A stretch of DNA of 64,000 nt from NCBI GenBank assembly GCA_964410185.1, contig CAYPFM010000003.1, forward strand, positions 150,119-214,118, read 5' to 3'. Positions within the stretch are counted from its first letter, which is position 1. The number at the start of each line of letters is the position of its first letter. The translations under genes were made by a program, and so were the position numbers. The notes below the pieces were generated by a model, which had not been told where the DNA came from, searched no databases, and saw only the letters and a list, made by a program, of their open reading frames with translations. Origin of the DNA: an uncultured Candidatus Saccharibacteria bacterium (GTDB lineage: Bacteria; Patescibacteriota; Saccharimonadia; Saccharimonadales; JAUPVS01). Positions 19,982 to 30,411 of this stretch are shown piece after piece.

Positions 19982-20530
19982 ATGCGTAGGCGCGGTAAAT
20001 CTAGTTCAAATGGTGGCATGATGGCCACTATACTCTTCGCAATATCTTGCTATGGCCTCCTAAGTAACCCTGTCTTTGTAGCTAAAGTAGAAGAAATCGC
20101 CAGATATGCCGTGGCAGTTGTTGCTTCGATCATTGTAGCCACATTCACGGTACGATTAGCAAGGAAAATTAACAGTCGAGGAATAAAAGCAGTAGATACC
20201 ATGTCAGGAGTAGAATTTGAACATTATGTGGCCAAACTCTTAGCAAAACAGGGCTACAGCCATATTTCATTCACCGAGCGATATGACTACGGTATAGATA
20301 TTGTCGCTGACAAGGATGGTATCAAGTGGGGTATCCAAGTAAAGCGCCATAAAGGTCCAGTAAAAGCCCTTGCTGTACGCCAAGCCGTTACTGCCTTGAA
20401 GAAGTACTGCTGCGACAGAGCCATGGTGGTGTCTAATAGCCAGTTTAGCCGAGTTGCTGTGGAGCTTGCCAGAACCAATGACTGCACTTTAATAGATAGG
20501 AATAAGTTAGTGAGTTGGATAACGGCTTAA
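19982..20530 (+). CDS. membrane-anchored restriction-endonuclease-fold (Mrr_cat-like) protein
   Basis: Two N-terminal TM helices, then GVEFEHYVAKLLAKQGY...DYGIDIVADKDGIKWGIQVKRH (D...QxK core). Confidence 0.7.
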   Translation: MRRRGKSSSNGGMMATILFAISCYGLLSNPVFVAKVEEIARYAVAVVASIIVATFTVRLARKINSRGIKAVDTMSGVEFEHYVAKLLAKQGYSHISFTERYDYGIDIVADKDGIKWGIQVKRHKGPVKALAVRQAVTALKKYCCDRAMVVSNSQFSRVAVELARTNDCTLIDRNKLVSWITA

Positions 20531-20739
20531 AATGGGAAGATGTCTGAGGACTTCACCCCAAGAGCTTTGATTATCTTTTCAAGTATTTCTACTGATGGAT
20601 TAATCTCGCTACGTTCAATCTTTGCATAGTAATTGGAGTTAATGCCTGCTTTTTCGGCTAAGCCAGCCTGACTCAAACCTTTTTGGAGTCGAACTTGCTT
20701 CAATTTCTGAGCAATTTTCTTGCTTGTCTTATCTGTCAT
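20527..20739 (-). CDS. XRE-family HTH transcriptional regulator
   Basis: 70 aa; GLSQAGLAEKAGINSNYYAKIERSE. Confidence 0.8.
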   Translation of the reverse strand: MTDKTSKKIAQKLKQVRLQKGLSQAGLAEKAGINSNYYAKIERSEINPSVEILEKIIKALGVKSSDIFPF

Positions 20740-20780
20740 TTCAGCTCTACAGTACTGTATTACAGAATGGGAGTAAAGGC

Positions 20781-20978
20781 TTATTCACCTTTGAGAACAT
20801 CTAACAGGCGATGCAGCCATTCTTCTGCGCCGATCTCCTGAATTAGTTTGGCGTTAGCCTTTACCCAGTCTTCTTCGGCTATGAGTGGTTCGTGATCTTC
20901 GCTCAGGTTCTTTGCAATTACAATAGCATAGTAGGGGTTGGCGAGCATCTTCTTCAGGTTGTTCTCATCATTGGTCAT
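20781..20978 (-). CDS. small acidic hypothetical protein downstream of the RT
   Basis: 65 aa ORF 44 nt after the RT stop, same strand; no family recognised. Confidence 0.4.
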   Translation of the reverse strand: MTNDENNLKKMLANPYYAIVIAKNLSEDHEPLIAEEDWVKANAKLIQEIGAEEWLHRLLDVLKGE

Positions 20979-21021
20979 CTATGCAAGATTATACCACGCA
21001 CAAAGATGTCCTCTCGATGCA

Positions 21022-22335
21022 TCACAGCTTACTCTTGGCAGTTCTGCGTATTTTATTAAGTTGGCGGCCAACTCTAGCAGAATTCGTTTTCTTGTACGCG
21101 CCCCGCAGGTAGTCTGCTTTTCGGTTCCCACGTAGATGTTTGCTTAGGGTTGATGATCGGAAGCCAATTTTCTCACCATTGAAATGAAAGCCCAAGTATT
21201 GAGTTTCTTCTCGTTTGTTATTGCCAGCCGGTTCTAGCTCTTGCGTGACATTCTTCAGTAGCTTAGAATCCGGCTCCATTCTAAACGCCTCTGTCTTGTG
21301 TAAGCCTAATACAAGTTTATCATTGCTCAGCGCTTGCTTAAGTTGATCATAGATTTCAATCGCCTTTCCGAGCGGGCAGATTATAAATATATCGTCGCTG
21401 TAGCGCTGGTATACACCCCCGTACTTTTCAACTACGACATCTCTCATAGTTTGGTCAAAATCTAGAAGGTACAAGTTAGCAAGCACGCCGCTAATAGGGC
21501 TGCCTTGAGGAATTCCTTTGCCGCTTCGGTTCGTCCTGACTGACTGTTTTAGATAGTGGTTGTAATCACTCTGCCTACACAGCTTCAGGCAACCTTGTTC
21601 TTTGATCAGATATGACCGTCTTTTCGTACGCAGGGTCTGGATTGCTTCACTAAAAATTATGTAGCGATACTTCGTTATTCGGTTATAAATTATTTCATGA
21701 TCCTGGCTGGCTGCAAAGCCTCCGCGGATTAGATCAGACCATCTTTTCTTAAGCAGAATGTGGTCAATTGTATCAAAAAAGCTTTTTACATCCACCATCA
21801 TGCAATCATATTCATCACGAGACTGCATTTCGGTGAATGCTTCTTTGGCAAAGTCTACATTGTTTTTACCAGAAATTGAACGGTAAGCAATGACATTGTT
21901 GCCAAGGTTACTTTCTGCCAATCGATTCTCGTAAAGCAGCTGCAATGTATAGGAATAGTACGAAAAGATACAGGCATCGCGATGTGATGCGTACATGATA
22001 GGCCGGGATTTAATGTGGCTAAATTTCTTCTGATCACGTTCTCCGCGAAGCGACGAGTAGCTGTAGTCGTATGGTGGCTGCCTGAATTTTCGTTGACGTT
22101 GGTCTTTACGAATGAATGGCAAAAAACCGTGTTGAGCAAGTTTAGACTCCTGTTCAACTACCTCCTTTAACCAGGCTGCTTGTTCGGCGGGACGACCAAG
22201 TTTTGGAAAGTGAAGTTTACCGTCTAGATGAGGATAGCCACGTTCTCCAATAAAGTTCTTTTTGAAGGCTCTTTGGCCTTTTGTTTTGCTTTCTTGGGCT
22301 TCTAGCCATTCTTCGTAAAGGGGTTTTTGGTTCAT
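21022..22335 (-). CDS. reverse transcriptase (stand-alone; Abi/UG-like rather than retron or group II by motifs)
   Basis: RT motifs RPIMYASHRDACIF (1), AYRSISGKN (2), VDVKSFFDTIDH (3), GIPQGSPISGVLANLYL (4), YQRYSDDIFII (5, YSDD), YLGFHF (7). Confidence 0.9.
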   Translation of the reverse strand: MNQKPLYEEWLEAQESKTKGQRAFKKNFIGERGYPHLDGKLHFPKLGRPAEQAAWLKEVVEQESKLAQHGFLPFIRKDQRQRKFRQPPYDYSYSSLRGERDQKKFSHIKSRPIMYASHRDACIFSYYSYTLQLLYENRLAESNLGNNVIAYRSISGKNNVDFAKEAFTEMQSRDEYDCMMVDVKSFFDTIDHILLKKRWSDLIRGGFAASQDHEIIYNRITKYRYIIFSEAIQTLRTKRRSYLIKEQGCLKLCRQSDYNHYLKQSVRTNRSGKGIPQGSPISGVLANLYLLDFDQTMRDVVVEKYGGVYQRYSDDIFIICPLGKAIEIYDQLKQALSNDKLVLGLHKTEAFRMEPDSKLLKNVTQELEPAGNNKREETQYLGFHFNGEKIGFRSSTLSKHLRGNRKADYLRGAYKKTNSARVGRQLNKIRRTAKSKL

Positions 22336-22736
22336 AGTAAATCCTGAAACTTGGCTCCCCGGTGCGGCGTAGCACTGTTACCCTAGGGTGAGGAGCCAAG
22401 GCAGTCGGCAGAGCGTTTGCGAAACGAGTACAGACTAGAACGGGGATAATGAGAGGTACTTTTCTCGAGTAGTTACGCCAAAGTCAATTCATTTGCGAAG
22501 AACTACAATGGTATCATGGCTATTGCTATCACAACACTATTTGTAACTCAGCAAGCGAGTAAGGGTATGCTACTATTGAAATTCAAGAGTAGTTTGGCCT
22601 TACGGCTAACCGCCTCCGTCAGCATTATCTGCCAGCTCGGGCTTGACCTCTGTCCTGTCTCACCTGCCGATGGTGCAGATCCCGTTCTCGTCCACACTAT
22701 TGTTGGCCACGGCAGTGGGTTGTTACCCTAAACAGT
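22336..22736 (-). ncRNA. structured ~400-nt leader/ncRNA of the RT gene
   Basis: No sense ORF of 60 aa or more; starts about 7 nt after an extended -10; multiple hairpins including a 9-bp stem at 22350-22400. Confidence 0.5.
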
Positions 22737-22742
22737 GGCTAT

Positions 22743-22751
22743 ATTATACCA
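22743..22751 (-). promoter_or_regulatory. extended -10 promoter (TGGTATAAT) for the RT leader
   Basis: Minus strand AAATTTGGTATAATAT. Confidence 0.5.
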
Positions 22752-22825
22752 AATTTGTATATATTACGCTACTGCTTTGCGACAAAATAGCACTAATGTC
22801 AAAGCGTTTATGCTATAAAAAGTAT

Positions 22826-22854
22826 TTGCATTATTAGCAAATGTCGTGTTATAA
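22826..22854 (+). promoter_or_regulatory. promoter of the T4SS operon
   Basis: TTGCAT-N17-TTATAA, then AAGGAG RBS and ATG 22876. Confidence 0.45.
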
Positions 22855-22875
22855 AGGTGGCCATAAGGAGTTGGT

Positions 22876-23217
22876 ATGAAAAATCGCAACAAACTTACAC
22901 TGCTAGTCACTTACGTGTCTATCGGGTTGCCATTCATCCTCACCCAACCAGTCTTTGCCGCTACGGGGGATGTAGGGAGTGTTGAAAGCTTTCTTCGAAG
23001 TATTATTCAGGTAGTCGCAGGACTAGCCGGTCTCATAGCGACCGGCTTTTTTGTAATCGGTGGCTTTAGTTATATCACCAGCTCAGGTAACCCAGAGCAT
23101 CTGGATAAGGCCAAGCGTACGCTGATGTATTCAGCGATAGGATTGGCTATCACGATCGGAGCGTTCGTCCTCAGTAATATTGTGGGCGATCTCGCCCACC
23201 GGGCGTTCGGAGGATAA
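22876..23217 (+). CDS. VirB2/TrbC-like T4SS pilin
   Basis: Signal peptide ending VFAATG; two TM helices flanking GGFSYITSSGNPEHLDKAKR. Confidence 0.6.
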   Translation: MKNRNKLTLLVTYVSIGLPFILTQPVFAATGDVGSVESFLRSIIQVVAGLAGLIATGFFVIGGFSYITSSGNPEHLDKAKRTLMYSAIGLAITIGAFVLSNIVGDLAHRAFGG

Positions 23218-23221
23218 CCGA

Positions 23222-24466
23222 ATGCTTGGACGATCAGCCATCATCCTTAACAGAATGGCTGACGCGTCCGCGGCCAGCCAGTCTATTAAGAGTTATCTGG
23301 CACCAGTTCTTTTAACTCTGGGTGGACTAGCTGTTATTGTTTGTACCTTCTTCCTCGTGGTTGGCGGTATCGGCTACATGACCAGTGCTGGTAAGCCAGA
23401 TAAGTTAGAGCATGCCAAGAAAGTGATTCGCAATGCCCTCATAGGGTTAGTGATCGTGATTGCCGCCGGTACTCTGACGTCAATACTGGTTCACGCCTAT
23501 GCTGGCTCCACCGGTACGGCGGTACAGCAGTTGCCGGATCTTGGTTCAGTCAATCCGGCTAGTAACTCACCAGGTCTTATTGACGTGCTCATCAAAGCAA
23601 TCACAGGTTTGTTCCAGTACATTGTGGAATCAGCAGCCAAACCGTTTATTGCTGGCCTAGATTTCTTTACGAAAGGTACACCACTAATGGCCGCCAACGC
23701 AGCCGTCTTTAACTTGTGGCTTGCCACTGTGGCCATTGCTGACGCCCTGTTTGTACTAGTCGTGGCACTACTCGGTTTCCATATTATGAGCTTTGCTGCA
23801 TTAGGGTTAGACGAAATTGAGTTTAAGCATCTATTGCCACAATTAGCAGCTGCTTTCTTACTAATTAACACCTCGATCTTCTGGATAGATATGGTGATTG
23901 GATTATCTAATGCCCTGATTGATGCTATCAACGCGGCGTTTCCGGGTGATTCTGTCTGGAAGGCTCTGTCTGGTGTAGTCGAGCATTCCACTGGTCTTGG
24001 GCTCGTGGCACTACTGGTCATGGTGGCTTTCATGATTCTGGCGGTAATTCTGATGATCTACTATATTACCCGTATCGTAACCCTCTATCTTGGTGCGGTG
24101 CTCGCCCCATTAGTGGTGCTGCTGTGGTTACTTCCAGGCTTTAAAGATTTTGCTGTGACCGCTATTAAAACCTACGTCGTTACTATTTTTGTATTGTTCG
24201 TGCACGTAATTATTCTATTGTTGGCAGCGTCATTACTTGCCAGTGTAGTGGCGACAGGGGGTAGTACACTAAACTCCTTTATGGCCATGTTGGTCGGTTG
24301 CGCAACGCTGATTGCGCTCTTAAAAACCCAGGGTCTCATGAATCAACTCGCCTACGTCAGTATGGGGCCAAAAGCACTCCGAAAACTTGGCTCTCAGTTT
24401 ATGACGGGCGTAAGTTACATGACCACTAAGGGTAAAGCAGTTGCCAAGGCAGGAGCTGCAGAATGA
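23222..24466 (+). CDS. VirB6/TrbL-like polytopic T4SS protein with an N-terminal pilin-like module
   Basis: Start moved to MLGRSA (GGAGGA RBS). The N-terminal GGIGYMTSAGKPDKLEHAKK is paralogous to the preceding pilin; at least 6 further TM helices. Confidence 0.6.
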   Translation: MLGRSAIILNRMADASAASQSIKSYLAPVLLTLGGLAVIVCTFFLVVGGIGYMTSAGKPDKLEHAKKVIRNALIGLVIVIAAGTLTSILVHAYAGSTGTAVQQLPDLGSVNPASNSPGLIDVLIKAITGLFQYIVESAAKPFIAGLDFFTKGTPLMAANAAVFNLWLATVAIADALFVLVVALLGFHIMSFAALGLDEIEFKHLLPQLAAAFLLINTSIFWIDMVIGLSNALIDAINAAFPGDSVWKALSGVVEHSTGLGLVALLVMVAFMILAVILMIYYITRIVTLYLGAVLAPLVVLLWLLPGFKDFAVTAIKTYVVTIFVLFVHVIILLLAASLLASVVATGGSTLNSFMAMLVGCATLIALLKTQGLMNQLAYVSMGPKALRKLGSQFMTGVSYMTTKGKAVAKAGAAE

Positions 24467-24981
24467 AATCAACGACCGTACCCGCTCAAGTTACCACCGT
24501 TGAGGATAAAATTGCTGGTAACTTAAACCTCGCGCAGTTGTTGCTACTGGCTGCATCTGTGTTCGGTGGTTTTGCCTTGTATATCGTCGTACCGCCAATG
24601 ATGCACTTCTCGCTCATAAAGGTGATGCTGTGTCTGGTAATCATGCTGGTCTTTGCCTCATTAGCAATTCGGGTGCGGGGTCGAATCTTAGCGCTTTGGG
24701 TTGGCACGATTCTCCGTTATAACTTGCGACCACGCTACTACCTGTACGACAAGAACGATACCTACTTACGGGTGAGTGAGCAAGAAGCACCCAAGGAAGT
24801 AGCCGAAACCAATACAATCGAGGTTACAGATACGGATAAGCATTCAGCCTTAGATATTCCGATGAACAAACGTATCCAACTTGAAACAGTCATGGCTGAT
24901 CCAACTGCTCAGCTCGCCTTTGAAACCAATAAGAAAGGAGGTCTCCATGTTCGTATTACAGAAGTCAAACAAGAAAGTTAG
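24463..24981 (+). CDS. PrgI/VirB3-like small T4SS membrane protein
   Basis: VPAQVTTVEDKIAGNLNLAQLLLL N-terminus and two TM helices; ATGA overlap with the upstream gene. Confidence 0.45.
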   Translation: MKSTTVPAQVTTVEDKIAGNLNLAQLLLLAASVFGGFALYIVVPPMMHFSLIKVMLCLVIMLVFASLAIRVRGRILALWVGTILRYNLRPRYYLYDKNDTYLRVSEQEAPKEVAETNTIEVTDTDKHSALDIPMNKRIQLETVMADPTAQLAFETNKKGGLHVRITEVKQES

Positions 24982-25555
24982 CACCAGAAGACAAATTAAT
25001 ATTAAAGGTGTCCGTGACAATGTCCTATTGCTACCTAACCACCAGTACCGTTTAGTGTTAGATATTTCCTCGGTGAACTTTGAGCTCAAGAGTGAAGCTG
25101 AACAAGACGCATTGATTGATACCTATCAAAGTTTCTTAAATTCTCTCGGCTGTGATGTACAGATCATGGTACGTATTCGTGAGCTGGATATGGATAAATA
25201 CATTGCTGAGTTCACGTCCCGCATGAGAAATGAGGAAGAAACCATTTACAAAGAGCAACTCAAAAACTACACCTCTTTCGTCCGCGGCTTAATCCAGACA
25301 AACAAGATCTTAGCACGTCAGTTCTATATTGTGATTCCCACTTCTGGGAAGGATGAGTTTGACTTGATAAAAGAGCAGCTTCACCTGAATGCCGACATTA
25401 TCGCTAAAGGTTTGGCTCGCATGGGTATGCATAGTCGCCAACTAACCAGCCTCGAGCTTCTTGACCTGTTCTACAGCTTCTATAACCCCGGACAAGCTAA
25501 GCGCCAACCAATTACGAATCAAACCCTTGAGCTACTTAACAGGAGTTACCTATGA
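24947..25555 (+). CDS. VirB4-family ATPase, N-terminal domain encoded as a separate ORF
   Basis: Start moved to MFVLQKS (AAAGGAGG RBS). INIKGVRDNVLLLPNHQYRLVLDISSVNFELKSEAEQDALI is typical of Gram-positive VirB4/TraE N-termini. Confidence 0.6.
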   Translation: MFVLQKSNKKVSTRRQINIKGVRDNVLLLPNHQYRLVLDISSVNFELKSEAEQDALIDTYQSFLNSLGCDVQIMVRIRELDMDKYIAEFTSRMRNEEETIYKEQLKNYTSFVRGLIQTNKILARQFYIVIPTSGKDEFDLIKEQLHLNADIIAKGLARMGMHSRQLTSLELLDLFYSFYNPGQAKRQPITNQTLELLNRSYL

Positions 25556-27312
25556 AAATGCCAGATGTGACCAAGTTTGTAGACAAGAATAGTGCGATTG
25601 CGCAGTGGCAAAAGAAACGATCAGAGAAGCCCAAAGAACTTCGACTATTACTCGGTGAGCAAGATGCCATGGATGTACTTTCCTACGCAGGGCTGGAAGA
25701 GCAAGCTGATCACTTTGTAATTGATGGCCGGTATATGCGTGTTCTGTTTGTTTCGGGCTACCCATTCGTTGCTAGCTCCGGTTGGTTGAATAGCCTCGTG
25801 AACTTCAATCACAATGCGGATATTTCCTACCACATTGCCAGCGTTGATGCTACGCAAGCACTACCAAAATTACATCGCAAGATCACTGAACTGGAATCCA
25901 CTAAGCGTGCCTACATGCGTGTCGGTAAAATTATCGGGCCCGAAATCACTGATCCACTGGAATCAGCCACGCATTTACGAGATAAGATTCAGCGTGGTCA
26001 GGAAAAACTGTTTCAGGTCTCAATTTACGTGACATTGTCTGCCGATTCGATAACGGAACTCGATAAGACAACTAAATTACTGGAAACGGTTTTGTCAGCT
26101 CGCTTGTTCTATATTAAAACCGCACGCTACCAACAACTTGAGGCGTTGCAGTCTATTCTGCCCCGGGCTCAAGACATCCTGAATCAGAAACGTAACTTGG
26201 ATAGCTCATCTGCGGCGCTAACGTTTCCGTTTATGAGCTCCGAACTTGTGCAAGAATCGGGCATTTTGTATGGGGTAAACAAATCCAATAACTCATTGGT
26301 CATCTTAGATCGTTTCAGCCTCAATAACGCGAATAGCATCGTCTTTGCGCAGTCTGGGAGTGGAAAAAGCTACGCTACCAAAGTAGAAATCCTGAGACAG
26401 CTGATGCAAGGCACTAAGGTTATCGTGATTGACCCCGAACGAGAGTACAAAAGGTTAAGTGAATCAGTTAACGGAACGTATATTAAGTTATCGGCCAAAT
26501 CAAAGGAAAAGATTAATCCGTTTGACCTCTCTGCCACCTTCCACACTCGCAAAGATCTGTCTGAACATACTCAAGATTTAATTGAAGTGGTCTCGCTGAT
26601 GGCTGAAGGCTTAAGTCCTCGTGAAAAGGCGGCTGTCGATAAAGCCATTCTTAGGATCTATAGGACTGCGAAGAAGAAAACTCCATTACTGGAAGACCTG
26701 TACAAAGAACTCCATGTACTTGGACAAATTAAGCTCTGTGATCGCTTGGAGAAGTATATTAGCGGCTCATTGGCGGATGTCTTTAACGCACAGACAAATA
26801 TTAAGTTAGAAAACCGACTAGTAATCTTCGATATCAAGGACTTGCCGGAGTCTTTGCGGCAAATTATGATGATGATCATTTCCAACTTTGTAGCCAATCA
26901 GGTCAAAGCCAAGCCCGAAAAGCGCCTGTTGGTTATTGATGAAGGCTGGCTACTACTGGAGCACGAGGAATCGGCACGGTTTGTATCGGGCTTAGTCCGG
27001 CGTGCGCGCAAGTACTACCTCGGAGTCTCGATTATCTCCCAGCAAGCTAACGACTTTCTTAAGAACGACTACGGTCGCGCCATTGCCTCACAAAGTTCTT
27101 TACGTATTCTCATGCGCCAGGACACCACAACTATTAAGAATGTGGTCTCAGAGTTTCACTTGAGTGAATACGAGGAAAACTTTCTGCTGACGTGTGATAA
27201 GGGTGAAGCCTTAATTATTGCCGACCAGCACCATGTGGCCGTTAAAGTGGTCGCTTCAGGTAAAGAGCATCCTCTGATTACCACTAACCCCGCGGAGCTG
27301 TACCACCTATGA
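25552..27312 (+). CDS. virB4: VirB4-family T4SS ATPase (central and ATPase domains)
   Basis: Walker A FAQSGSGKSYATK, Walker B LLVIDEGW; ATGA overlap with the N-terminal-domain ORF. Confidence 0.85.
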   Translation: MKMPDVTKFVDKNSAIAQWQKKRSEKPKELRLLLGEQDAMDVLSYAGLEEQADHFVIDGRYMRVLFVSGYPFVASSGWLNSLVNFNHNADISYHIASVDATQALPKLHRKITELESTKRAYMRVGKIIGPEITDPLESATHLRDKIQRGQEKLFQVSIYVTLSADSITELDKTTKLLETVLSARLFYIKTARYQQLEALQSILPRAQDILNQKRNLDSSSAALTFPFMSSELVQESGILYGVNKSNNSLVILDRFSLNNANSIVFAQSGSGKSYATKVEILRQLMQGTKVIVIDPEREYKRLSESVNGTYIKLSAKSKEKINPFDLSATFHTRKDLSEHTQDLIEVVSLMAEGLSPREKAAVDKAILRIYRTAKKKTPLLEDLYKELHVLGQIKLCDRLEKYISGSLADVFNAQTNIKLENRLVIFDIKDLPESLRQIMMMIISNFVANQVKAKPEKRLLVIDEGWLLLEHEESARFVSGLVRRARKYYLGVSIISQQANDFLKNDYGRAIASQSSLRILMRQDTTTIKNVVSEFHLSEYEENFLLTCDKGEALIIADQHHVAVKVVASGKEHPLITTNPAELYHL

Positions 27313-27794
27313 ACTTAGTCGGCTACGTCTTTAAGAAATCGAAGTACGAACTGATGATTGTTTTAGCAGTCATCATTGTGTTGTTTTCAATGCCGGTCAT
27401 AGTACTGGCGGCTGTTTCTGATCTTGGGGCAATCGACACACATCCGCTCTATACCGAACCAGCTGACGGTCGTGATTTATATGACTACGGTAACTGTACC
27501 TATTGGGCAGCCTTGCGACGTATCCAGATTGGGCACCAAATACCCAACACCTGGGGCAATGCTAATACCTGGGCGGAGCGGGCAGCCCTTGACGGCTACC
27601 AGGTCGACCATAACCCCGCCGTAAACTCGATCATGCAAACCAGTGCCGGTTTCTACGGGCACGTTGCGTTCGTCGAAGCAGTAGATGAGCAGGGCAACTG
27701 GACAATCTCTGAGATGAACGTTATTGGCTATGATCAACTTGATACCAAGACGCTATCGCCAGCCATGGCCAAGTGGTTCTACTTTATTCACTAA
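27309..27794 (+). CDS. CHAP-domain peptidoglycan hydrolase (VirB1 analogue)
   Basis: TM anchor, catalytic Cys in GNCTYWAA and His in GHVAFVEAV. Confidence 0.75.
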   Translation: MNLVGYVFKKSKYELMIVLAVIIVLFSMPVIVLAAVSDLGAIDTHPLYTEPADGRDLYDYGNCTYWAALRRIQIGHQIPNTWGNANTWAERAALDGYQVDHNPAVNSIMQTSAGFYGHVAFVEAVDEQGNWTISEMNVIGYDQLDTKTLSPAMAKWFYFIH

Positions 27795-27804
27795 AGGAGG
27801 AGCT

Positions 27805-30411
27805 ATGCATATAATCGATCCGGTCTTCAATTTTTTGCACTCGGTAGCCTCGCTACTACCGATAATTGGTGTTTGTTTATTCTTGGCGGTTTTGGCGGCA
27901 ACAATTATATGGCTTTTGAGACGAGTGATTGCAGTTATTCATAACTTAAAAGTTGAAACAATCTATCTGGAGGTTACGCCACCTTCACAGACAGATAGGG
28001 CACCAATAGCCACCAACCAGCTATTCTCGGCTCTGCATGGGCTTGGCTTATCGCAAATCGGGTATAAACGGCTACTTGGTATAAAAAGTAGTTTTGCATT
28101 GGAGATTGTATCTAGCCGTAAAGATGGCATTCGATTTGTGTTTTGCGTGCCAGCCAACAAAGCCAAGACGGTGGAGCGCTCAATTATCTCCTATGTCCCG
28201 GATGTAAAAGTTAAAGCCATATCAGACTATTTGCCAGTGTTTTCACGGGCAAAAGTAGTCTCCTTTGTTCAGGCTAAACACTTCGCCTTCCCGCTTGCCG
28301 AGCATGAGACCCTAGACAGCCACGATCCAGTTGGTTATCTCACGAATGCCATGACAAAGCTCAGCGACAAGGAGCTCATGTCCTTCCAGCTTGTTTTAAC
28401 CCCGATGCGTAACCGCCAAGCCGAACGACTGCGTAACAAAATTCTGCATAACGAAGATTTGCTCTCAGCACTCGATAAAAAGCCGACACCATTGTCACCG
28501 CTTACTACGGCTCTAAATACCGTTCTTTTCAGCATGCTCGATACGGCATCCAGTGCATACCACGGGCCTTCAAGAACCGCACAAATGTCCGCCAGTCGTG
28601 ACCTTGAGTATAAGAAGCAGGTTGCTAAGAATATTAAACCGGTCCGTACCCTTAGTTACTTTGAGCACGAACTGGTGGAGTCAATTCACCGCAAACTCAG
28701 TCAGCCACTGTTCCATGCTGAAATACGTGTTGTGATTGCTTCAGACAGTAAAGAGGAAGTACGCCAACGCCGCAGCAATATTGTCTCTGCCCTCAATCTA
28801 CTCAATGTGCCCAAGTACCAAGCTCTGAAAGCTCGGCGTAATCACTTTGGCGTTATCCAGCGACTCAAACAGTATGTGTTTGTCAAAAGGTTGCCAGGGG
28901 TGTTTCGTTCTACTAATGTATTGTCCGCCTCCGAACTTTCAAGTCTATACCACTTCCCAAATAGCAAGTCAGCTAAGACGGAAAATGTTGTAAAGTCCCT
29001 AAGTAAAACATTACCCGCACCGATATCAATGAAGAATGGCAGCAAACTCGATATTATACTCGGAAGCAATGAACATCACGGCTCAGAGACACCAATTGGC
29101 CTTACTGAAGCGGAACGGCAAAGGCATCTTTATGTTATTGGTGGCACGGGCAATGGAAAAACTACTATGCTGCAGTATGCTATTGTTCAAGATATAAAGA
29201 ACGGCAAAGGCATAGCCGTGATAGATCCACATGGTGACCTCGTAGAAACAGTCCTACGTCACATCCCCAAAGAACGTATCAATGATGTCATCTACCTAAA
29301 CCCCGATGACCTAGACCGCCCGATCGGTATTAATCTATTGGAACTCGACCGAGATCTAGCTGGCGAGGAACTGCTGCGCGAAAAAGATCTTATCACTGAG
29401 TCCACGATTTCAGTTCTGCGAAAAATATTCTCTGAAGACGATAGCGGTGGCCACCGGATTGAATATATCCTACGCAACACCATCCAAACGGCTTTATCGT
29501 TGGAAGGAGCGACACTGTTTACTATTTTCCGTCTATTAAATGATGCCAAGTACCGACGTGGCGTTGTTAAAGGGCTCGACAATCAAGATCTCAAAGACTT
29601 CTGGAATAATGAGCTTGGTAAGGCTGGAGAGTTCCAACGTGTCAAGATGATCAGTGGTATTACCGCCAAAGTCGGACGATTCTTATTCTCTGCAAGTGCA
29701 AAGCGCATACTAGAACAAGAGAAGTCCAGTATAGATTTCAACGATATACTTGATTCAAAGAAAATACTGATTTGTAATTTCTCGAAGGGGTTGCTCGGAG
29801 AGGATACCTCGACACTATTCGGGACGACTGTACTTGCAAAACTTCAAGTTGCGTCGCTCCGTAGGGCTCGCCTACAACAAGCCAACCGTACGCCTTTTTA
29901 CCTTTACGTTGATGAGTTCCAGAACTTTGCCACAATGAGTTTTGTACAAATGCTGTCTGAAGCTCGAAAGTATAAATTGTTTCTAACGATGGCAGAGCAG
30001 TCTACTAGTCAGCAGGAACAACAACGCTTAGTAGACATCATCTTAGCTAATGTCGGTACGGTAGTCTGCTTCCGCTCCGGGAGCCCAGCAGATGAACGAC
30101 TGATATTGCCTCTCTTTTCTCCTTTTATTGAGCAGGGAGAAATTGCCAACCTCCCAGCCTACACCTTTTATGCTCGGGTTGCTGCCGTGCAAGCGCAGGA
30201 GCCAATGTCTGGTACCACTTTGCTACTCCAAGATGCTGATAATGAGGAGCTGGCTCAAAGAGCAATCAATTACTCTAGAAAAAACTACGGCAAGAAGGCA
30301 GCGGACGGTAAACCAAAGGCTGAAGAATCTTCTAGCTCGAAGGTGCAAATAAAAGAATCGGGAAAGTCAGCTACAATATCGCAGCCCGGTACCGCAGATG
30401 ATTTCATATAG
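27805..30411 (+). CDS. virD4: type IV coupling protein (VirD4/TraG/TraD family)
   Basis: Start moved to MHIIDPVF (AAAGGAGG RBS). N-terminal TM helices, Walker A VIGGTGNGKTT, Walker B FYLYVDEFQNF. Confidence 0.8.
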   Translation: MHIIDPVFNFLHSVASLLPIIGVCLFLAVLAATIIWLLRRVIAVIHNLKVETIYLEVTPPSQTDRAPIATNQLFSALHGLGLSQIGYKRLLGIKSSFALEIVSSRKDGIRFVFCVPANKAKTVERSIISYVPDVKVKAISDYLPVFSRAKVVSFVQAKHFAFPLAEHETLDSHDPVGYLTNAMTKLSDKELMSFQLVLTPMRNRQAERLRNKILHNEDLLSALDKKPTPLSPLTTALNTVLFSMLDTASSAYHGPSRTAQMSASRDLEYKKQVAKNIKPVRTLSYFEHELVESIHRKLSQPLFHAEIRVVIASDSKEEVRQRRSNIVSALNLLNVPKYQALKARRNHFGVIQRLKQYVFVKRLPGVFRSTNVLSASELSSLYHFPNSKSAKTENVVKSLSKTLPAPISMKNGSKLDIILGSNEHHGSETPIGLTEAERQRHLYVIGGTGNGKTTMLQYAIVQDIKNGKGIAVIDPHGDLVETVLRHIPKERINDVIYLNPDDLDRPIGINLLELDRDLAGEELLREKDLITESTISVLRKIFSEDDSGGHRIEYILRNTIQTALSLEGATLFTIFRLLNDAKYRRGVVKGLDNQDLKDFWNNELGKAGEFQRVKMISGITAKVGRFLFSASAKRILEQEKSSIDFNDILDSKKILICNFSKGLLGEDTSTLFGTTVLAKLQVASLRRARLQQANRTPFYLYVDEFQNFATMSFVQMLSEARKYKLFLTMAEQSTSQQEQQRLVDIILANVGTVVCFRSGSPADERLILPLFSPFIEQGEIANLPAYTFYARVAAVQAQEPMSGTTLLLQDADNEELAQRAINYSRKNYGKKAADGKPKAEESSSSKVQIKESGKSATISQPGTADDFI

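Follow-up and report, generated by a model that had tools for sequence, protein, structure and literature searches.

What is the role of the long leader that precedes a reverse transcriptase (RT) gene in a 64,000-nt stretch of DNA from an uncultured Candidatus Saccharibacteria bacterium (contig CAYPFM010000003.1)? This whole stretch is called the window here, and all coordinates refer to it. The leader was defined as the minus strand from 22336 to 22740, between a promoter-like TGGTATAAT (22743–22751) and the ATG of the RT gene. Our analysis makes it likely that the leader is the conserved, folded non-coding RNA (ncRNA) of a divergent DRT2 anti-phage defence system and that an internal unit of it acts as a neo-type rolling-circle template. 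Judging from the reading frames, a stop-free neo-type gene is probably hidden on the opposite strand of the leader. To our knowledge, DRT2 is the only system that generates a gene missing from the genome by copying a non-coding RNA into DNA in a circular manner, and we know of neo synthesis documented so far for one proteobacterial clade, with a 111–129-nt ACA-flanked template.

The RT is a divergent member of the DRT2 family

The two elements that define the locus are as follows.
21022–22335, minus strand: RT gene, 437 aa, divergent DRT2/UG2, catalytic YSDD motif in YQRYSDDI
22336–22740, minus strand: whole leader, DRT2-type ncRNA of about 405 nt, alignable from end to end with 11 other loci

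The RT was matched by the PADLOC model Drt2 at E = 7.7e-104, the next family being UG17 (3.9e-25), and the match to Drt9 was far weaker (2.7e-15). RVT_1 of Pfam was found in the protein, and the solved structure of Klebsiella pneumoniae DRT2 (9c0i) matched residues 50–407 with E = 1.2e-47. The NCBIfam Drt2 equivalog gave 301.6 bits, and the retron RT models gave at most 48.9 bits against cut-offs of at least 235. On these sequence comparisons, the RT is a divergent member of the UG2/DRT2 clade. Because the RT belongs to this family, the leader is very probably, by analogy, a rolling-circle-like template. An initial annotation of this DNA had proposed an RT-linked structured RNA templating repeated synthesis; that proposal was right in kind, and its motifs and its 345-nt domain are taken up below.

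A protein search with the RT returned 16 relatives at 45–65% identity, all of them metagenomic, and more distant relatives (31–42% identity) that were partly labelled Patescibacteria or Saccharibacteria. The hosts of the related loci appear to be Patescibacteria- or Saccharibacteria-like. Twelve close-group loci were fetched singly for comparison, and the leaders of 11 of them, whose RTs are 55–65% identical to that of the window, aligned over the full length of the window leader (alignment A4, mean column identity 68%). All counts out of 12 below refer to the window leader together with these 11 homologous leaders. Wider searches added little to this set. Profile scans of metagenome and genome collections gave only relatives of at most 37% identity, because the chosen patterns were generic RT motifs, and neither the genome contigs searched with the single RT protein nor a phage collection searched with distant blastn gave a match. 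An nhmmer search of 171 loci with the leader alignment recovered the close clade alone, and a scan of 20000–24000 against Rfam at E up to 1 matched no family. Separately, a 299-aa fragment (P0001) on a 2.9-kb JGI metagenome contig was 100% identical to the window RT, so the same organism or element has been sampled at least one further time.

The leader is a conserved and folded RNA

The consensus fold of the 12 leaders comprised 83 pairs, of which 37 had compensatory changes compared with 18 in shuffled alignments. In this fold 94.9% of the cells were paired, versus 87.0% in the shuffles, and none of 500 shuffles equalled it. The folding energy of the window leader alone was −130 kcal/mol (z = −1.88), and 3 of 100 shuffled sequences folded as well. 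The unusual structure that the initial annotation had seen in the leader is thus strongly upheld by covariation, but the folding energy goes just modestly beyond shuffles; the evidence for structure is comparative. The following hairpins lie outside the central part of the leader and upstream of its 3′ end.
22717–22728, minus strand: 5′ hairpin GGG-UAACAA-CCC, stem retained and loop variable in homologues
22664–22715, minus strand: long 5′ hairpin with outer stem CUGCCG/CGGCAG and inner stem GUGGA/UCUGC (helices 2 and 3), 7 of 12 pairs compensatory
22414–22426, minus strand: CGUUU-CGC-AAACG hairpin of the 3′ scaffold region (helix 13), 95% paired, 2 compensatory pairs

The long 5′ hairpin differs in length between loci, and its outer stem changes, for example, from CUGCCG/CGGCAG to CUACUA/UAGUAG; it is a candidate counterpart of the DRT2 “5′ handle”. 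Covariation also supported two local pairings proposed earlier, the hairpin at 22414–22426 and ACUACU...AGUAG with its inner UUGAA/UUCAA. The GCC-GUAA-GGC hairpin of GNRA type, proposed alongside them, failed the same comparison (72% paired versus 75% in shuffles, zero compensatory changes). Its bases sit in other helices, GGC/GCC and GUAAG/CUUAC, and the latter has C-G in six sequences and U-A in six at one pair. The central unit is folded RNA as well, with many compensatory changes in helices 5–12, and the canonical DRT2 template likewise has stem-loops.

Two further observations concern pairings at the edges of this centre. The hexamers UGAGAC (22657–22662, which holds the candidate jump donor described below) and GUUUCA (22345–22350) are perfect complements, each position being kept in at least 11 of the 12 loci, and RNAalifold paired them as a long-range stem around template and scaffold (helix 4). 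As modelled, this stem could link the 5′ edge of the template to the 3′ tail; covariation is uninformative on it because both hexamers hardly vary. In locus L169, GCC, GGC and GGC (22640–22642, 22612–22614 and 22477–22479) change jointly to GUC, GAC and GAC. Both GGC copies, which lie 135 nt apart (a spacing divisible by three in all 12 loci), are able to pair with the GCC, and the triple change therefore suggests two mutually exclusive helices and a possible conformational switch by the 3′ edge of the template.

A single antisense frame is open across the candidate template unit

In the DRT2 system of K. pneumoniae, the RT is preceded by an RNA of 280 nt that is made up of a 5′ handle hairpin, a template of 120 nt and a 3′ scaffold. 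The RT copies the template repeatedly, jumping from ACA at the 5′ edge of the template to ACA just past its 3′ edge; the concatemer rebuilds a promoter, in which TTGACA, close to the end of a repeat, and TATAAT, close to the beginning of the following one, are 17 bp apart across the junction (Tang et al., bioRxiv 10.1101/2024.05.08.593200; Wilkinson et al., PMC12039810). Canonical DRT2 repeats are 111–129 nt long, always divisible by three, and the neo frame is stop-free opposite the RNA (10.1101/2024.05.08.593200; PMC12039810). On infection, the concatemeric cDNA of such a system becomes double-stranded and is transcribed, and a toxic Neo protein results. An exhaustive search of single sequences for open circular units with 3-nt microhomology was swamped by chance matches, and the search became informative only after conservation in all 12 loci was demanded. 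Candidate edges accordingly had to share at least 3 nt and to lie a multiple of three nucleotides apart in all 12 loci. As a positive control, the same scripts were run on loci of Undibacterium (L124), Thalassotalea (L111) and Ferrimonas (L159) from the profile scan. They recovered the published ACA...ACA unit of 120 nt with one open frame, as well as TTGACA, 17 bp and TA(T/C)A(C/A)T across the junction, including TTGACA-17-TATACT. The elements proposed for the window locus are listed below.
22486–22659, minus strand: candidate template, model A, 174 nt, from GAC-1 (22657–22659) to the base before GAC-2 (22483–22485)
22497–22658, minus strand: candidate template, model B, 162 nt, from ACA-1 (22656–22658) to the base before GCA (22494–22496)
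22516–22731, plus strand: antisense open reading frame (ORF), 71 aa, invariant ATG at 22516–22518, frame constraint only up to 22659
22504–22509, plus strand: −10-like TACAAT, read Tyr-Asn, TAnnnT in 12/12 loci and always 6 nt before the invariant ATG
22643–22648, plus strand: −35-like TTGACC (RNA GGUCAA), read Leu-Asp, close to the cDNA unit's 3′ end, invariant in the 12 loci as well as in L171

Across the whole leader, just two pairs combined an identity of at least 3 nt with a spacing divisible by three in 12/12 loci, GAC/GAC and GGC/GGC. The GAC(A) in UGAGACAGGAC (22657–22659) and the GAC in AUUGAC (22483–22485) formed the sole such pair whose unit was stop-free in every locus. The 135-nt GGC...GGC unit was in frame in all 12 loci, but it was rejected, since in L168 and L170 it is interrupted by an in-frame TAA and the −35-like element falls outside it. 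The model A unit measures 174 nt, or 171 or 168 nt in three loci, and the corresponding lengths in model B are 162, 159 or 156 nt. When circularised, the model A unit had exactly one stop-free frame in each of the 12 loci, on the antisense strand, and the other two antisense frames carried 3–7 stops each. None of 20000 column shuffles left any frame open in all sequences. The model B unit was likewise stop-free in 12/12 loci, and its cDNA ends in TGT like that of the canonical system.

The constraint on the frame coincides with the unit. The indels in alignment columns 109–285 (22483–22659) are of 3, 3 and 6 nt, all three being multiples of three; the 5′ hairpin region has 13 gap runs and the 3′ scaffold 16, of which only 2 in each are multiples of three. 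Immediately beyond GAC-2 there is a TAA in L168 and L170, and L173 has a stop four codons past GAC-1. Upstream of the ATG, the frame stays open for 11 codons to GAC-2 in 12/12 loci. Past “PVS”, the ORFs have tails of 4–40 codons whose frame shifts against the conserved motifs of the RNA.

The antisense peptides of the 12 leaders share the pattern ...Y(N/H)..M......LKF(K/N)S...LRLTA....(W)Q.(G)LD..PV(S). The open frame would encode hydrophobic peptides, whose grand average of hydropathy (GRAVY) of 0.38–1.05 compares with 0.79–0.91 in canonical Neo examples. Within the unit, the sequences are 64% identical in nucleotides but 46% in amino acids. Canonical Neo is described as weakly conserved in amino acids and hydrophobic in composition (PMC12039810). 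The low amino-acid identity and the hydrophobic composition found here agree with this description, in which the conserved residues of canonical Neo mostly mirror nucleotide-level elements. Gene callers had placed ORFs of 67–79 aa opposite the leaders of L161, L169 and L170; the 79-aa ORF of L167 lies further upstream and runs through the promoter region.

Promoter-like elements of the unit are in the order and phase of canonical templates

The −35-like TTGACC and the −10-like TACAAT stand in the same order and codon phase as in the canonical DRT2 templates of L124, L111 and L159. In the canonical peptides, Tyr-Asn corresponds to the −10 near the start of the repeat (Tyr-Thr in L124 and L111) and Leu-Asp to the −35 near its end. 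On the chromosome of the window, the two elements are out of order and 139 bp apart, and this arrangement is sensible only if a junction joins them. The junction of model B sets TTGACC exactly 17 bp from TAnnnT in 12/12 loci, and that of model A gives 29 bp. The models differ by four codons and otherwise predict an identical protein. A comparison of L082–L086, L171 and L091 aimed at choosing between the two junctions gave an inconsistent answer.

Two other promoter arrangements were tried and rejected. Under the 174-nt model, the hexamer 17 bp downstream of TTGACC is TTTGCG, which is not −10-like. The junction-spanning CTGTC|A obtained the top score as a −35 in 11 of 12 loci, yet the chromosomal hexamer scored nearly equally; it was dismissed because the junction rebuilds nothing there.

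The −10-like hexamer followed by 6 nt and ATG also occurs in L082, L091 and L171. No Shine-Dalgarno sequence was found ahead of the antisense ATG. Transcription from this −10 would start with the A of the ATG, so that the message might be leaderless.

Proposed mechanism and comparison with known systems

Following K. pneumoniae DRT2, we propose the following course of events. Every step after RNA folding is predicted by analogy: that the RT makes cDNA, that and where it jumps, that the product is transcribed and translated, and that it is toxic. From the alignment, the RNA comprises a 5′ hairpin region (22664–22728), a structured centre (about 22486–22659) and a 3′ scaffold (22341–22485) ending in a clamp near the RT start. 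The RT would bind the flanking structured parts and copy the central region repeatedly, jumping from the 5′ edge GAG-ACA-GG (22654–22661) to the 3′ edge, either GAC at 22483–22485 or GCA at 22494–22496. In model A, the junction would read ...CCTGTC|AATTCATTTGCG and yield a 174-nt repeat; in model B, it would read ...CCTGT|GAAGAACTACAAT and yield a 162-nt repeat. The product would be a head-to-tail cDNA concatemer which, once double-stranded, would present 54–58 stop-free codons per repeat opposite the RNA strand, and the repeat peptide would contain ...KNYNGIMAIAITTLFV...GLDLCPV.... Each repeat would carry the −10-like element, the invariant ATG 6 nt later and the −35-like TTGACC at its far end. 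With the 162-nt repeat, the junction would place the −35 17 bp from the −10 and so rebuild a promoter whose parts are separated and in the wrong order on the chromosome. Arrest of the infected cell by the hydrophobic repeat protein would follow.

The window locus resembles K. pneumoniae DRT2 in its single RT gene following a long structured RNA on a presumed common transcript, and in the succession of 5′ hairpin, template and 3′ scaffold. It has likewise one stop-free antisense frame in a unit divisible by three, a hydrophobic and weakly conserved peptide, a −10 near the start of the cDNA unit (Tyr-Asn) and a −35 near its end (Leu-Asp). The differences are also clear. The RNA measures about 405 rather than 280 nt, the unit 162–174 nt (54–58 codons) rather than 111–129 nt, and the unit is flanked by GAC...GAC or ACA...GCA instead of ACA...ACA. 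The −35 is TTGACC and lies 10–11 nt from the junction, as against 6, and just about one third of the RT residues are identical. Canonical neo has a ribosome-binding site, but the candidate gene has an ATG without a Shine-Dalgarno sequence, at the expected start of the transcript.

The same arrangement was found in more distant relatives. In the Patescibacteria loci L082–L086, the RTs are 34–37% identical to that of the window and the leaders could not be aligned by nhmmer. The order of parts is nevertheless the same, with a TGnTATAAT promoter, a 5′ hairpin, ...UGAG.....(G/U)GUCAA..., an antisense ORF and a long clamp hairpin abutting the RT start. In L082, L083, L084 and L086, within 470 nt upstream of the RT, the antisense ORF contains TA(T/C)AAT, decoded as Tyr-Asn, and TTGAC(A/C), decoded as Ile/Leu-Asp. 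A manual count on the peptides gave 48 codons from the −10 Tyr to the −35 Asp in L082 and L083, the same as in the window.

For the more divergent DRT2 clades of Tang et al. (fig. S6), ncRNAs were predicted but annotation of Neo did not succeed; here, a candidate Neo unit is proposed. With its DRT2-like RT and an upstream structured RNA that falls outside the ACA-based Neo pipeline, the window locus probably belongs to one of these clades. From the sequences, we see about even chances that a Patescibacteria-associated DRT2 clade uses a template about 50% longer, a jump motif other than ACA...ACA and a leaderless start at the predicted transcription start of the rebuilt promoter. If the proposed reading of the leader is true, it supplies the Neo annotation that was left open for divergent clades in 2024, and the essential features of neo would be the frame and the order and phase of the promoter elements, the motif, the length and the ribosome-binding site being free. 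If the 162/174-nt unit is right, the mechanism extends to small-genome bacteria of candidate-phyla type, neither the flanking motif nor the length of the repeat is fixed, and concrete predictions of junction and repeat peptide follow for the clade.

Other RT systems fit less well. Retron msr-msd RNAs are also structured, lie next to the RT and template DNA, and the 5′/3′ pairing of the window leader resembles their a1/a2 repeats. The RT differs from those of retrons, however, in the bit scores given above, the 5′/3′ helix shows no covariation and Rfam gave no retron match. DRT9 and DRT10, which make homopolymer or telomerase-like tandem-repeat DNA, have class 2 UG RTs and use an adjacent ncRNA as template and scaffold, as is proposed here; unlike their short repeats, the template candidate of the window is long and frame-constrained.

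Weighing the neo-type reading against its alternatives

Several observations weigh against a neo-type template in a DRT2 system. The RT score to the NCBIfam Drt2 equivalog lies under the curated cut-off of 390 bits, and we therefore regard the protein as a divergent DRT2 member. No pair of the published flanking motifs, ACA...ACA 111–129 nt apart, was found in these leaders. The two models conflict, model A having a conserved microhomology with a 29-bp spacer and model B a 17-bp spacer with weak homology; the microhomology of model B is 2–3 nt long and fails in L168 and L173. The variability of codon positions 1, 2 and 3 (0.374, 0.303 and 0.363) is a weak coding signature. Moreover, all 12 sequences come from one sub-clade and are non-independent.

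The leader could also be scaffold and template of a DRT2-family RT whose product is not of the neo type, for example non-coding repetitive or homopolymer-like DNA in the style of DRT9/DRT10, the open frame being a by-product of constraints on the RNA. The authors of the DRT2 study themselves called Neo annotation “more challenging” in divergent DRT2 clades and suggested alternative mechanisms (10.1101/2024.05.08.593200). The weak signal at the third codon position, the amino-acid identity below that of the nucleotides and the base-paired, covarying state of most of the unit agree with such a product. We nevertheless hold it to be unlikely. One frame alone is stop-free in all 12 loci, as in none of the 20000 shuffles, the indels of the unit are exclusively multiples of three, the invariant ATG stands 6 nt past TAnnnT, and the Tyr-Asn and Leu-Asp phases are common to canonical Neo, which is itself weakly conserved in amino acids (PMC12039810).

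Alternatively, the antisense ORF at 22516–22731 (plus strand, 71 aa) might be an ordinary chromosomal gene for a small protein, such as a toxin or membrane peptide, with no part for reverse transcription. Gene callers did annotate ORFs of 67–79 aa in L161, L169 and L170, and an invariant ATG, an upstream −10-like element and a hydrophobic peptide would suit such a gene. The C-terminal tails after “PVS”, however, vary in frame, length (4–40 codons) and sequence through indels that are not multiples of three, and an ordinary gene would have no need of the 11 codons kept open upstream of the ATG in every locus. In the genome, the matching −35 lies downstream of the −10, and the ATG lacks a Shine-Dalgarno sequence. 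A chromosomal gene is accordingly quite improbable, and we return to the neo-type template as the preferred explanation of the leader.

The 10-nt repeat and the 5′/3′ pairing

The initial annotation had placed the reverse-transcription unit elsewhere, as the stretch of about 345 nt between two UAGGGUAACA copies, closed by a 5′/3′ helix and with synthesis starting and stopping at the 10-nt copies. The repeat exists: TGTTACCCTA occurs on the plus strand at 22376 and 22721 alone, at an offset of 345 nt, and the complementarity of 7–9 bp between 5′ AGCCACUGUU and 3′ AACAGUGCU is likewise present in the window. In addition, UAACA corresponds on the RNA strand to TGTTA, the published repeat-junction motif of DRT2 (PMC12039810), and CACUGUU/AACAGUG looks like the short basal stem of canonical DRT2, where UGU is paired with ACA-2 (10.1101/2024.05.08.593200).

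Support for a function of the repeat was not found. Among shuffles of the leader, 4.9% contained a direct repeat of at least 10 nt, as did 29 of the 318 genuine 405-nt tiles taken from the window, so that an equally long repeat is expected in 5–9% of such segments. In the 11 homologous leaders, the two sites have just 3–6 nt in common, and the shared cores of 4–6 nt identifiable in five of them are offset by 327–340 nt, inconstantly modulo 3, the intervening indels being mostly not multiples of three. The 5′ copy (22721–22730) sits in the variable loop of the GGG/CCC hairpin, where the homologues have UAACAA, UAGCAACUAG, UAAUAA, UAAA, UAUAUG or UACGAA. The loop lacks ACA in at least four homologues (L163, L170, L172 and L173) and has AUA instead in two more, which speaks against start, stop or jump sites at the copies. 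Only the 3′ member of the pair, GGUAACAGUG, is conserved, and the distant loci L082–L086, with the same layout of the RNA, contain neither UAACA motif. Circularising the 345-nt unit gives stops in each of the six frames, and no continuous frame can be encoded by it.

The closing helix fared no better. Among the 12 sequences, 83.9% of its cells pair versus 83.7% in shuffles, and the covariation score is 0.093 in both, so the complementarity stands as a feature of the window and lacks covariation. The 3′ bases are claimed by a covarying local hairpin (22362–22375): in L169 and L170, an altered 3′ GUGC is compensated by the local GCAC and not by the 5′ end. An a1/a2-like closure is not supported by this comparison. 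A reverse-transcription unit bounded by the 10-nt copies is thus very improbable, and the repeat is most likely a coincidence; neither it nor the 5′/3′ helix has a demonstrable part in the mechanism. As a caution, the most striking feature of the raw sequence (a 10-nt repeat at 345 = 3 × 115 nt) is most likely not the functional one.

The clamp and the 3′ tail

The 3′ end of the leader is made up of the following elements.
22350–22400, minus strand: clamp three-way element, outer 10-bp stem (22390–22399 with 22351–22360) and two inner hairpins
22380–22389, minus strand: clamp inner hairpin ACC...GGU, containing most of the 3′ 10-mer copy
22362–22375, minus strand: clamp second inner hairpin GUGC...GCAC, 100% paired, score reached by 0 of 500 shuffles
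22341–22350, minus strand: conserved 3′ tail GUUUCAGGA, overlapping the RT Shine-Dalgarno sequence in the window

The clamp had been described as a 9-bp stem and was confirmed with 10 pairs, all 100% paired across the loci, five of them with compensatory changes. Helices 14–16, which form the whole element, are all 100% paired and have compensatory changes at eight pairs, and the distant relatives L082–L086 have a comparable long hairpin at this position. The 3′ scaffold of the K. pneumoniae RNA has a pseudoknot, a “tower” and a “buttress”, and the 3′ end of that RNA primes synthesis on the template; in the window, the 3′ part of the RNA has the covarying three-way clamp and a hairpin. Four homologous loci provide the RT with a separate Shine-Dalgarno sequence, which lies downstream of the conserved tail; because of this, the AGGA of the window looks like part of the RNA tail GUUUCAGGA and not like a dedicated ribosome-binding site. 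That the leader is an ordinary cis-regulatory 5′ untranslated region, whose strongly conserved clamp ends 4 nt from the AGGA and would gate RT translation with no template role, is highly improbable, since the upstream RNA has been shown to be needed as scaffold and template by RTs of this family, a conserved and covarying structure of 400 nt together with an antisense frame constraint goes far beyond the needs of a translational switch, and the four homologues just mentioned have their RT Shine-Dalgarno past the tail.

Transcription of the leader and genomic neighbourhood

The region upstream of the leader and the flanking genes contain the elements listed here.
22743–22751, minus strand: predicted extended −10 promoter TGGTATAAT of the ncRNA-RT transcript, TGnTATA(A/C)T in 8 of 10 aligned loci
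22768–22813, minus strand: conserved block AGCAUAA(A/G)CG(C/U)UUUGACA ... UUGUCGCAAAGCAGUAGC, 20–70 nt upstream of the −10, in 8–9 homologous loci
22876–30411, plus strand: type IV secretion/conjugation-like cluster
19982–20530, plus strand: protein with Mrr-type restriction endonuclease domain, about 500 bp downstream of the RT gene

The extended −10, conserved in the aligned loci, stands directly 5′ of CACUGUUGAGGG, and transcription of ncRNA and RT is predicted to start at about 22736–22740. No conserved promoter-like element was found ahead of the RT start in the aligned leaders, and a simple sigma-70 scan lists none there either; the same scan misses the extended −10 promoter TGGTATAAT. 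The arrangement suggests that leader and RT share one transcript from this promoter. The block at 22768–22813 is kept although the adjoining genes vary among loci. It repeats the motif TCGCAAAG, which is also present in the leader near the candidate acceptor (22490–22497 region) and in the CGUUUCGCAAACG hairpin. This block might serve as an operator or an UP-like element, or it might belong to a longer transcript.

No SLATT or other effector gene was consistently found next to the RT in the related loci. In the window, the secretion cluster begins divergently from the RT leader and encodes two type IV secretion system pilin/TrbC-like proteins, PrgI, a VirB4/TraC-like ATPase and a coupling-protein-like ATPase. 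Together, the Mrr-type nuclease and the RT suggest a small defence island beside this cluster.

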